Below, in pieces: positions 7,807 to 10,296 of a stretch of DNA of 43,263 bases. Origin of the DNA: a virus; IMG/VR virus record IMGVR_UViG_3300009431_000882; one strand, 5' to 3'. The notes under the pieces were generated by a model that was given only the letters and a program-made list of their open reading frames with translations, was not told the DNA's origin and made no database searches. Made by a program: the position numbers and the translations under genes. The first letter of the stretch is position 1. Each line of letters begins with the position of its first letter.

Positions 7807-8217
7807 ATGGATGACGCACTCTATAAAGAAGTAACTTCGTCCATCAAAGCGATGTTCGATATGACGGCTCGTGTAGATGAACGAGTCAAAATGCTGGTTG
7901 ACAAACAGAATAATGTGGAGCACCGTTTAGAAACCATCTGTACTTCGCAAATGGAGTTGACAACCAAAGTAGGAATTCTGGAAACTCGCAATGGGCACGA
8001 AGTGAAACAACACGTGGCAAAAGTAGATTCTTCCATTGATGCATTGGAAGGCGAACTGAGGCAAGTTGAATTACGGTTGATGGCGGTTGAAAAAACTGCT
8101 TCAAGCTCCGAAGCTAAGTGGAAGATGATTCTGGACTTCATCTACAAAGCAGTGTGGGTTATCCTGGTATGCTACCTCCTGTACAAACTCAATTTAACGC
8201 CACCGCCACTACCATGA
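7807..8217 (+). CDS. hypothetical coiled-coil protein with a C-terminal transmembrane helix, 136 aa
   Basis: ORF. C-terminus WVILVCYLLYKL. Its stop overlaps the next start as ATGA. Confidence 0.5.
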   Translation: MDDALYKEVTSSIKAMFDMTARVDERVKMLVDKQNNVEHRLETICTSQMELTTKVGILETRNGHEVKQHVAKVDSSIDALEGELRQVELRLMAVEKTASSSEAKWKMILDFIYKAVWVILVCYLLYKLNLTPPPLP

Positions 8218-9575
8218 GATTTCGACAGTACTTAGAACAAGCAGAAGATGCCAAAACGATGCGGGCTCATATCCCCCTCGACCCGGAAGTTTACGTCCTA
8301 AAGAACTTGTTTGACAAGCACGGTCACGATCTGCGAGTAGTCGGCGGGGCAGTACGAGACTTCTTAACACACGTCTACCGAGGCGGTAATGGGTCGAAAT
8401 ATAAGCCAAAGGACATCGATCTAGTGACACCCGCTCCACCAGACGAAATTAAGGCGGTCATCACAAGCCAGGATGCTGAGGAGAAAGGCATCCACGATCT
8501 TCCAATTGGAGCAGCTTTCGGTGTCATAGCAGCGGTCTTTCCTAGACGCACGAATGATCCAAAAGAAAAACCACCTATGTATGAAATTGCCACTTATCGA
8601 AAAGACATAGGCGCTGGACGACGCCCTGATGCAGTAGAATACGTCTCAGATGCAACACATGATGCGAAACGACGTGATCTAGCGTACAATGCCTTATACT
8701 ATGACGTTCCTGATAAGCCCGGCGAGGAAGGGATTCTTTACGATTACAGCGGTGGCCAAGGATTCGAGGACTGTAAAACCGGTTTTCCTCATTTTGTTGG
8801 CGAGCCGCTTGAGCGTTGTAGAGAAGACAACCTTCGTGTGATGCGATACATTCGTTTTCTCTCCAGAGGACACGTGGGCGGACCAGAGGTCGTCGAGAGA
8901 GAAGACGCCAAAGCAGCGGAAGCCCTGCGACAATTTGCCAGTATGCCAGGCGTTTCGTCCGAAAGAATCATAGCCGAGTTTCTATCTGGCCTGAAATCAG
9001 CACTTGATCCGGTCAACTACCTACGTACGCTTCATCATTTTGGCATAATGGACCGCATGTTCTCCAATCTTCAAGTTAACACCAAGTTTCAGAACCTCAG
9101 AACGCTTGGTTCAGGAGACATGGTAAGGAATCCCCGGATCGTTTTGGCCTACATCCTAAAAGACAATCCACCTGAGACCCTAGGCCAGGCGCTACAGACG
9201 CTCAAATTCAACAGTCCCCAAGAAGCTGGTAGATTGGTAGAAGGCATTGTGTTTCTAGTAAGTTTGCAAAATCTCAGCACCGACACGGCTACCGGTCTTT
9301 CAAAGACTAGAGACAAACTACGGCCAGATGTAAGGATGCCTGATCCTAAAGCTAGAGAGAGCTTTATCTCTCAACACAACGACGAAATGAGAGCCTGGGC
9401 CGCTCTACTTAAACTAGATCAGAATACAATGGCTGACTTCACTCGCTATGAACGAACTATCAGAGGAACCGACCCTCGATTCGCCGGTTTGCAAGGCAAA
9501 GAGTTAGGAAAAGCAATCAAAGACGCTGAGCAAGAAGCCTTTGTTGCGTTGTCGAAAAAGAAGAAAAAGAGGTAG
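8214..9575 (+). CDS. CCA-adding tRNA nucleotidyltransferase / poly(A) polymerase family protein (class II head domain)
   Basis: Motifs LRVVGGAVRDFL...DIDLVT, YEIATYRKD, RRDLAYNALYYD and EDNLRVMRYIRFLSRG match the class-II nucleotidyltransferase head and neck. The start is reassigned to the ATG at 8214, which overlaps the upstream stop. The track ORF begins at 8118. Confidence 0.75.
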   Translation: MRFRQYLEQAEDAKTMRAHIPLDPEVYVLKNLFDKHGHDLRVVGGAVRDFLTHVYRGGNGSKYKPKDIDLVTPAPPDEIKAVITSQDAEEKGIHDLPIGAAFGVIAAVFPRRTNDPKEKPPMYEIATYRKDIGAGRRPDAVEYVSDATHDAKRRDLAYNALYYDVPDKPGEEGILYDYSGGQGFEDCKTGFPHFVGEPLERCREDNLRVMRYIRFLSRGHVGGPEVVEREDAKAAEALRQFASMPGVSSERIIAEFLSGLKSALDPVNYLRTLHHFGIMDRMFSNLQVNTKFQNLRTLGSGDMVRNPRIVLAYILKDNPPETLGQALQTLKFNSPQEAGRLVEGIVFLVSLQNLSTDTATGLSKTRDKLRPDVRMPDPKARESFISQHNDEMRAWAALLKLDQNTMADFTRYERTIRGTDPRFAGLQGKELGKAIKDAEQEAFVALSKKKKKR

Positions 9576-9576
9576 A

Positions 9577-10296
9577 ATGTTCCGTAGGTATTTTGTCACA
9601 GAGGAAACTCGAAAAGAAAACATCGTAAAGATCGACATCTTTGATTTCGATGACACTCTGGTCTACACCCCTACCGAAGACAAGGCCGCTCGAATCATAG
9701 CTCGCTATAATCACAAAGCTCAGGATCAAGGTAAAAGGCAGTTCAAACTCAAAGAAGATGAATACTACTGGTACAACCCACAATCGTTAGAACCACCAGT
9801 GGTGCCTAAGCCTACGCCATGTGCTATGTTGAACCAAAAAGTGGCACAGGAATTCTATGCTTCGCAACGAGACCCTAGCTGCCTCACTGTACTACTCACA
9901 GGCAGACCACCAGAATTGCGAAAACACATACAACGGGTTCTTGATGACTTCAAACTAAAGCCAGATCGTTTCTACCTGATGCTTAAAGGCCACCAGGTAA
10001 TGCGAAAAAAGGTCGACCGGATCGCTAAACTACTCGATGAGTTCCCACAGATAGAAGAAATCGCACTGTGGGATGATAAAGGCCCAGATCGAGCTAAACT
10101 GATTGGGAATCCCGATGAGAACCATATAGCGGACTTCAGACGATTTCTTAACATCTGCAAGGCAAAACGGGAGCGGCGAGACCCAAATTGGAAACTCAAA
10201 ATCAAAGTAAATGAAGTGCCGCCCCGTGATGAAGAGTCAGTGAAACTGCTACTACAACAGAACCCTGACTACGGAAACGCAGAAAAGAAGCGCTAG
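9577..10296 (+). CDS. HAD-superfamily phosphatase, resembling the T4 polynucleotide kinase phosphatase domain
   Basis: Motif I DIFDFDDTL (DxDxT), motif II LLTGR and motif IV WDDKG, in the same order as T4 Pnkp (FDVDGTL, VSGR, IDDR). The ATG lies 1 nt after the stop of the CCA-enzyme gene. RBS AAGAGG. Confidence 0.6.
   Translation: MFRRYFVTEETRKENIVKIDIFDFDDTLVYTPTEDKAARIIARYNHKAQDQGKRQFKLKEDEYYWYNPQSLEPPVVPKPTPCAMLNQKVAQEFYASQRDPSCLTVLLTGRPPELRKHIQRVLDDFKLKPDRFYLMLKGHQVMRKKVDRIAKLLDEFPQIEEIALWDDKGPDRAKLIGNPDENHIADFRRFLNICKAKRERRDPNWKLKIKVNEVPPRDEESVKLLLQQNPDYGNAEKKR

Follow-up and report, generated by a model that had tools for sequence, protein, structure and literature searches.

A tRNA nucleotidyltransferase gene coupled to a Pnkp-like HAD phosphatase gene in a phage-like element: a candidate tRNA 3'-end repair module

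The CCA-adding enzyme of Escherichia coli carries an HD domain whose removal of 2',3'-cyclic phosphate makes the repair of 3'-phosphorylated tRNAs possible (PMC6961547, citing Yakunin 2004), and the protein bears the NCBIfam name 'multifunctional CCA addition/repair protein'. Here we describe a pair of adjacent genes at positions 8214-10296 of the IMG/VR virus record IMGVR_UViG_3300009431_000882, an entire JGI metagenome contig of 43,263 base pairs (bp) which is referred to below as the window. The first gene encodes a class II tRNA nucleotidyltransferase of the CCA-adding type, and the second a stand-alone HAD phosphatase resembling the phosphatase domain of T4 polynucleotide kinase-phosphatase (Pnkp). 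On balance, we favour the reading that the pair is a ligase-independent module of a phage-like element which heals and rebuilds tRNA 3' ends, and by analogy it would be a two-gene counterpart of the E. coli Cca HD-domain repair enzyme. As in Cca, a CCA-adding enzyme would be combined with a phosphoesterase that clears a 2',3'-cyclic or 3'-phosphate before CCA is restored, with neither a ligase nor a kinase. In the window, however, the phosphoesterase is a separate protein of unrelated fold, with the aspartyl-phosphate mechanism of HAD enzymes rather than a metal-dependent HD domain, and it may supply the HD-domain function in trans.

A similar logic is found in eukaryotes, where angiogenin removes the CCA of tRNAs, the 2',3'-cyclic phosphatase ANGEL2 unblocks the end and the CCA-adding enzyme TRNT1 restores it. 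Human TRNT1 is also the best solved relative of the window nucleotidyltransferase. This system differs from the window in the fold of its phosphatase (EEP rather than HAD) and in being a cellular stress response rather than a viral operon. T4 Pnkp and Pnkp1 share with the window a Pnkp-fold phosphatase domain, but the window is without their 5'-kinase domain, an RNA ligase or a Hen1 partner. A nucleotidyltransferase stands in the ligase's place, and the target would be the 3' tail and not an internal break in the anticodon loop.

In jumbo phages, stand-alone HAD phosphatases of the SAK ('Swiss Army Knife RNA repair') family have been described as linear 3'-phosphatases of RNA repair (Iyer et al., 2021; PMC7824862, section 3.4.9). 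CCA-adding enzymes were assigned to the same repertoire as nucleotide-restoring enzymes, and the SAK-HAD phosphatase was framed as a helper upstream of ATP-grasp RNA ligases (Iyer et al., 2021; PMC7824862). The window HAD agrees with this description in its family (PF10307), its stand-alone form and its predicted activity as a linear 3'-phosphatase. It departs from the scheme in that its partner is a CCA-type nucleotidyltransferase, both in the window and in 23 of 55 viral loci, with no ligase found in the window. The parts list, with SAK-HADs and CCA enzymes as phage RNA-repair components, is therefore already known, and what would be new, by analogy with these systems, is a ligase-free two-gene form of end-healing and CCA repair. 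No paper describing an operon or fusions of CCA enzyme and SAK-HAD was found in a literature search whose reach did not extend to Burroughs and Aravind (2016).

The two genes and their products

The two genes and their motifs, given in amino acids (aa) of the respective protein, are as follows.

8214..9575, + strand: class II (CCA-adding type) tRNA nucleotidyltransferase, 453 aa, without an HD domain (Pfam, PHROG, PDB, Foldseek)
8343-8360, + strand: nucleotidyltransferase motif A, GGAVRD, aa 44-49 (motif scan)
8412-8420, + strand: metal-binding DxD, D67-I-D69 (motif scan)
8670-8678, + strand: motif B, RRD, aa 153-155
8823-8837, + strand: templating motif D, EDNLR, aa 204-208
9577..10296, + strand: stand-alone SAK-family HAD phosphatase, 239 aa, Pnkp-like, predicted polynucleotide 3'-phosphatase (Pfam PF10307)
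9634..9660, + strand: HAD motif I, DIFDFDDTL, aa 20-28, with nucleophile D23 and general acid/base D25 (36-homologue alignment)
9892..9906, + strand: HAD motif II, LLTGR, aa 106-110, with T108 and R110 (36-homologue alignment)
10009..10011, + strand: HAD motif III, K145 (36-homologue alignment)
10069..10083, + strand: HAD motif IV, WDDKG, aa 165-169, with D167 (36-homologue alignment)

The nucleotidyltransferase open reading frame (ORF) begins with an ATG at 8214 and ends with a TAG stop at 9573-9575. The ATG of the HAD gene lies at 9577, leaving the spacer of 1 nucleotide (nt) that the initial annotation had reported, and is preceded by a Shine-Dalgarno-like AGAGG. Homologues of both proteins share the same starting methionines, and the starts at 8214 and 9577 are therefore favoured over longer GTG and TTG ORFs. 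Upstream, an ATGA at 8214-8217 overlaps the nucleotidyltransferase start with the stop of a 136-aa ORF (7807-8217), so that three + strand genes are tightly stacked (7807-8217, 8214-9575 and 9577-10296). Promoter and terminator scans around the pair gave results at chance level.

The nucleotidyltransferase matches the Pfam PolyA_pol head family PF01743 over residues 40-187 (58.6 bits against a cut-off of 23, 1e-15) and PHROG 2244, 'tRNA nucleotidyltransferase' (4e-30). Among PDB sequences the human mitochondrial CCA enzyme TRNT1 ranks first (5e-21), ahead of the Bacillus stearothermophilus CCA enzyme (1e-10) and E. coli poly(A) polymerase (PAP; 6e-10). Its AlphaFold model has a predicted local distance difference test (pLDDT) score of 93 and displays the full head-neck-body-tail architecture, aligning over 415-466 columns to the human, Planococcus, Bacillus, Thermotoga and Aquifex tRNA nucleotidyltransferases. 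The top 12 Foldseek matches are all CCA- or A-adding tRNA nucleotidyltransferases, with about 450 aligned columns, and PAP comes 13th (8e-11). An alignment of 45 nucleotidyltransferase homologues taken from the database (A4) shows G44, G45, R48, D49, D67 and D69 to be invariant, as are R153, R154, D155, E204, D205 and R208, which align with the same motifs of human TRNT1.

The initial annotation had allowed that the CCA-like protein might instead be a poly(A) polymerase unrelated to tRNA. The order of these matches and the retention of GGAVRD, DID, RRD and EDNLR speak otherwise, and the protein is most probably a CCA-adder; specificity for CCA or poly(A) is not readable from sequence, and the evidence is a ranking in which CCA enzymes stand above PAP by both sequence and fold. 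No HD domain was matched by Pfam in this protein, and NF008137, the NCBIfam family of the E. coli-type addition/repair protein, scored 29 bits against a cut-off of 451. The NCBIfam equivalogs all scored far below their cut-offs (the best, NF009814, at 85.5 bits against 290, and pcnB at 70 against 306), which marks it as a divergent viral class II enzyme that is an orthologue of neither bacterial Cca nor PcnB.

The HAD protein matches Pfam HAD_SAK_1 (PF10307, 'Swiss Army Knife RNA repair') with 41.6 bits against a cut-off of 25.6 (1.5e-10). An exhaustive HMMER search returned homologues in 269 cluster representatives at E<=1e-3, and all 16 of its word-indexed homologues carry a precomputed PF10307 annotation. 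The motifs DIFDFDDTL, LLTGR and WDDKG, which had been picked out in the initial annotation as T4 Pnkp-like, coincide with the conserved HAD motifs in the alignment of 36 sequences. D23, D25, T108, R110, K145 and D167 are invariant there, conservation of F24 and T27 reaches at least 90%, and the pair D166-D167 is likewise invariant or at least 90% conserved.

The proposed likeness to T4 Pnkp is also upheld by structure. The HAD model (pLDDT 93.4) has Pnkp1 as its top Foldseek match, with the 3'-phosphatase domains of Pnkp1 and of T4 Pnkp as the nearest relatives of its predicted fold, and a profile of the family searched against PDB sequences found its best match in Pnkp1 of the Pnkp1/Rnl/Hen1 RNA-repair complex (E 0.003). 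It thus groups with polynucleotide 3'-phosphatases, and not with sugar-phosphatases or nucleotidases, the outcome that the initial annotation had named as contrary to its proposal. The protein consists of a single HAD domain with no fused P-loop 5'-kinase, and it has a family-specific insert between motifs I and II (conserved W65 and L71, then PPxVP) which is absent from Pnkp. An extra C-terminal domain was considered and ruled out, as in the model the extension gives the last core strand and helices only. Outside Pfam the HAD had no match in PHROGs, NCBIfam or PADLOC, and its tblastn matches were limited to three 'huge phage' metagenome records without annotation, at 24-25% identity. PADLOC gave no match for the nucleotidyltransferase either, and the pair is therefore not a catalogued defence system. 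Both enzymes look active, every class II nucleotidyltransferase motif and each of the four HAD motifs being intact and conserved.

Linkage of the two genes across viral loci

A scan of IMG/VR yielded 69 loci with a SAK-HAD relative (designated by L numbers below), 55 of them non-redundant. Neighbouring genes were counted with a crude longest-ORF gene caller and hidden Markov models (HMMs) built for this analysis. By iterated HMM, a class II nucleotidyltransferase was present in 23 of the 55, nearly always one to three genes upstream and on the same strand. Thirteen of the 23 paired loci are syntenic with the window and may reflect common descent, and the rest have unrelated architectures. Three of these (L030, L033 and L041) encode a CCA enzyme followed by a HAD_SAK_1 protein. 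Two conserved HxT motifs and a weak match to tRNA-ligase-CPD in the C-terminal domain of this protein identify that domain as a 2H cyclic phosphodiesterase. Two others (L058 and L063) have CCA-2H fusions, one of them within a polyvalent protein, with the SAK-HAD adjacent or three genes downstream, and in three (L050, L059 and L060) the CCA module upstream of the HAD is embedded in a giant protein. In L126 a CCA-HD protein precedes a HAD-like gene, giving a phage version of E. coli Cca with a HAD-like neighbour, and L147 has a cytidylyltransferase-HAD-like-CCA fusion. Related architectures carry tRNA_NucTran2_2 tRNA-binding domains.

Direct fusions of the two enzymes exist in both orders. L062 has a HAD_SAK_1-PolyA_pol fusion gene, with the HAD followed by the nucleotidyltransferase, and a search of a 5.8-billion-protein collection with the L062 protein found P0292, an uninterrupted fusion of 561 aa in the opposite order (nucleotidyltransferase at about 19-267, HAD at 395-525). 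That the two enzymes are fused in either order, and that HAD, 2H and HD partners replace one another, is a classic signature of a functional link. The initial annotation had pointed to homologue neighbourhoods as a place to look for tRNA nucleases or ligases; what they contain is a recurrent link, including fusions, between a CCA-type enzyme and a 3'-end-healing phosphoesterase, and no cognate tRNA nuclease was identified. The identities of the two proteins, their intact active sites, the coupling of their genes and the comparative linkage and fusion are established by these data.

The L062 fusion gene (L062:7272-9982) is itself broken just past the nucleotidyltransferase head domain by a GIY-YIG-type ORF of 266 aa (8274-9074), and the remaining CCA frame picks up at about 9164-9958 in a different frame. 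The probable cause is that a group I intron or a homing endonuclease has inserted into the CCA gene. L014, L018, L021 and L025 encode proteins of 600-800 aa that carry HAD_SAK_1 at the C-terminus (e.g. L014:6714-8522), and the N-terminal ~470 aa of this type of fusion had no match in Pfam or PDB sequences.

More distant multidomain relatives of the HAD include a protein that combines MJ1316 (RNA cyclic-end recognition), 2H (2H/AKAP7), kinase, tRNA-ligase CPD and HAD domains. Others join the HAD to a Zeta/AAA_33 kinase and NUDIX, or to topoisomerase IB. All of these partner domains handle nucleic-acid ends.

The window's own lineage was defined by a divergently transcribed block of genes of ~165, 430 and 160 aa together with the 136-aa gene. 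The CCA and HAD genes are adjacent in the window, L008/L009, L159 and L160, and they are split by one opposite-strand gene in L002/L003. L001, L004/5, L006/7 and L010 have the HAD in the same slot without a CCA gene, and L161 has a CCA gene without the HAD. At the junction, L008, L159 and L160 show an overlap of 4 nt or 1 nt, against the 1-nt spacer of the window.

Proposed function and its alternatives

In the reading we favour, a nuclease or a transesterification would strip part of the CCA from a tRNA or tRNA-like RNA and leave a 3'-phosphate or 2',3'-cyclic phosphate, a blocked end that could be neither extended nor aminoacylated. The HAD, using Asp23 as nucleophile in the manner of the T4 Pnkp phosphatase domain, would then remove the phosphate to give a 3'-OH, and the co-translated class II nucleotidyltransferase would draw on CTP and ATP to put back the lost C, C and A. 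T4 Pnkp opens cyclic phosphates. The window HAD would either do so itself or act on 3'-monoesters only, and relatives with a 2H domain would open them too. We infer tRNA 3' ends as the substrate, this order of reactions and a purpose of keeping translation running during infection, with tail-cleaving host defences or toxins as a possible trigger.

Damage at the extreme 3' end of an RNA needs no 5'-kinase or ligase for its repair, in keeping with the lack of both in the window. As the initial annotation had observed, the window ORFs scanned gave no match to kinase families, and RNA ligase families (Rnl1, Rnl2 and RtcB) were not found among those scanned with Pfam, PHROGs and NCBIfam. ARAGORN found no tRNA genes in the 43-kb window, and none were present in 29 of 32 related loci, which argues for host tRNA as the substrate.

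Several points weigh against this reading. The pair is facultative in its own lineage: since some relatives retain the HAD alone in the same slot, the HAD is the conserved gene and the nucleotidyltransferase the facultative one. The reciprocal link is weak, a SAK-HAD-like gene lying within 6 kb in only 4 of the 80 viral CCA loci that come nearest to the window enzyme. RNA 3'-phosphatase activity is a prediction for PF10307 proteins at large, a HAD monoesterase need not be able to open cyclic phosphates, and there is no 2H or HD domain in the window. No tRNA-tail nuclease cognate to the pair was identified. The window may also be a fragment of a larger genome, in which case ligase, kinase or tRNA genes could lie outside it.

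The further points on this side concern a role in RNA decay or tailing, which the pair may have. Under this alternative, the HAD would strip 3'-phosphates from endonuclease products for a poly(A)- or oligo-tailing nucleotidyltransferase and 3'->5' exonucleases, and the turnover of host or phage RNA would be sped up. Class II CCA enzymes and bacterial poly(A) polymerases are not reliably separable by sequence, and E. coli PAP is still a clear match to the window protein (6e-10 by sequence, 8e-11 by Foldseek). In seven viral loci, among them L026 (8583-10565), L012, L023, L027, L028 and L046, the SAK-HAD adjoins an RNase II/R-type exoribonuclease of 640-660 aa with RNB, CSD and S1 domains. This enzyme is a second recurrent RNA-3'-end partner of the SAK-HAD family, and the link fits RNA decay as well as repair.

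Templating residues are also altered in the divergent nucleotidyltransferases that stand beside the HAD in the wider syntenic lineage (L015, L019, L020, L031, L034, L044, L045, L049, L052, L061, L069 and L072). These proteins have 490-575 aa with an N-terminal extension of ~80 aa and are encoded directly upstream of the HAD (e.g. L052:6479-7948). Their DxD has become N/G-x-D, D-x-N or N-x-E, RRD has become NRD or GRD, and the templating arginine of EDxxR is gone. A canonical CCA gene (L083) lies 12 kb away on the L044 contig. Judged by these motifs, the divergent partner may not be a CCA-adder. The window protein, however, keeps the canonical EDxxR motif and is nearer to CCA-adders in sequence and full-length fold. 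The tRNA-binding tRNA_NucTran2_2 domains of related architectures, and the 2H and HD healing-domain fusions which mirror the E. coli Cca repair enzyme, also point away from tailing and decay, and we regard this explanation as unlikely.

The two proteins could also have independent functions, their adjacency reflecting inherited gene order. The HAD would then be a core gene with a substrate of its own (DNA 3'-phosphate ends, nucleotides or protein) and the CCA gene a mobile accessory in a permissive slot. Retention of the HAD in the same slot among close relatives, with a CCA gene in about half, fits such an arrangement, and the fusion of some SAK-HADs to topoisomerase IB indicates DNA 3'-phosphate chemistry. 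The window enzyme moreover shares 30-39% identity with ordinary phage CCA enzymes, against 21-31% with the divergent nucleotidyltransferases of its wider lineage, suggesting replacement or acquisition. Fusion proteins in two opposite orders run counter to independence, as do the same-strand upstream nucleotidyltransferase in 23 of 55 loci from several unrelated architectures and the start and stop codons that overlap or nearly touch in four lineage members. We give little credence to unlinked functions. Least probable is that the CCA enzyme matures phage tRNAs lacking an encoded CCA, with an unrelated HAD: many phage CCA genes accompany tRNA arrays, tRNA-Pro genes lie 5 kb downstream in L030 and L041 and the window may be an incomplete genome, but this role was rejected given the lack of tRNA genes noted above, and it leaves the conserved phosphoesterase partners and fusions unexplained.

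Genomic setting and significance

The 136-aa ORF upstream of the pair (7807..8217, + strand) encodes a coiled-coil protein with a C-terminal hydrophobic helix, recognised from its sequence and with only weak PHROG matches. It is probably co-transcribed with the pair, and nothing ties it to RNA chemistry. In 13 viral loci, and likewise in L004, L006, L008, L159 and L160, a homologue is found at the corresponding place upstream of the nucleotidyltransferase/HAD slot. The closest relatives with the same block (genes of ~160, ~430 and ~155 aa, the 128-136-aa gene, CCA and HAD) are L159, on a contig of 137,703 bp, and L160, on one of 142,118 bp. Contigs of this size, together with the lack of a terminal repeat in the 43,263-bp window, suggest that the window is possibly a fragment of a much larger genome, and the L159 and L160 contigs may alternatively be proviruses. 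Megablast of positions 1-25000 against 50,697 GenBank phage records gave no match.

Downstream of the pair, a perfect GC-rich hairpin of 15 bp (10 G-C pairs, 4-nt loop) lies at 10747-10780, ~450 nt beyond the HAD stop and past a convergent 119-aa gene, within a minus-strand DUF2934 ORF (10704-11021). At a distance of 16 kb from the pair, 26000-26647 (+ strand) encodes a SpoU/TrmH-type RNA 2'-O-methyltransferase of 215 aa with SPOUT motifs (Pfam SpoU_methylase, 3e-15). The gene content of the window is unusual for a phage, and no PHROG or Pfam match to terminase, portal or capsid was obtained in the ORFs tested. Other recognisable genes are the following.

2518-5379: 953-aa protein with a major-vault-protein shoulder domain
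13024-13800: Peptidase_C92 protein
23669-24895, - strand: NAD-dependent epimerase/dehydratase
24662-25933: M16 peptidase
31605-33638, + strand: 677-aa protein with an N-terminal 'Planctomycete extracellular' motif and a dockerin domain
34827-35741: aspartate/ornithine carbamoyltransferase-like gene
41297-41992: TrkA_C protein
42246-42755: cpYpsA SLOG protein

The protein with the 'Planctomycete extracellular' motif and dockerin domain offers a hint of a planctomycete host.

Cleavage of tRNA is increasingly recognised as an antiviral strategy. Known phage answers to it are substitute tRNAs and, for breaks in the anticodon loop, the Pnkp-ligase pathway. Cas12a3, reported in 2026, cleaves the CCA tails of tRNAs, and according to its discoverers no viral counter-measure is known (PMC12851939). 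Variant tRNAs offer no escape from cleavage of this universal tail, and if the reading we favour is true, the two-enzyme kit, which unblocks the end and rebuilds it, would be a phage counter-measure to tail cleavage. Cuts of the RuvC type leave a 3'-OH and remove ACCA, including the discriminator base. Because no phosphate is left by such cuts, the presence of a phosphatase points to metal-independent tail nucleases and not to Cas12a3 itself.

A broader proposal, which we put forward only tentatively and hold to be rather less probable than not, is that the pair of CCA enzyme and SAK-HAD, with its 2H and HD variants and fusions, is a widespread and dedicated means by which phages counter immunity or toxins that cut off the 3' tails of tRNAs. 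As such it would be a repair pathway that works without a ligase and stands apart from the T4 Pnkp/Rnl1 paradigm. The two-enzyme kit would also give a first functional handle on the PF10307 phosphatase family, and the recurrence of the coupling (23 of 55 viral SAK-HAD loci, fusions in both orders, and 2H or HD substitutes) provides a searchable signature for such modules.

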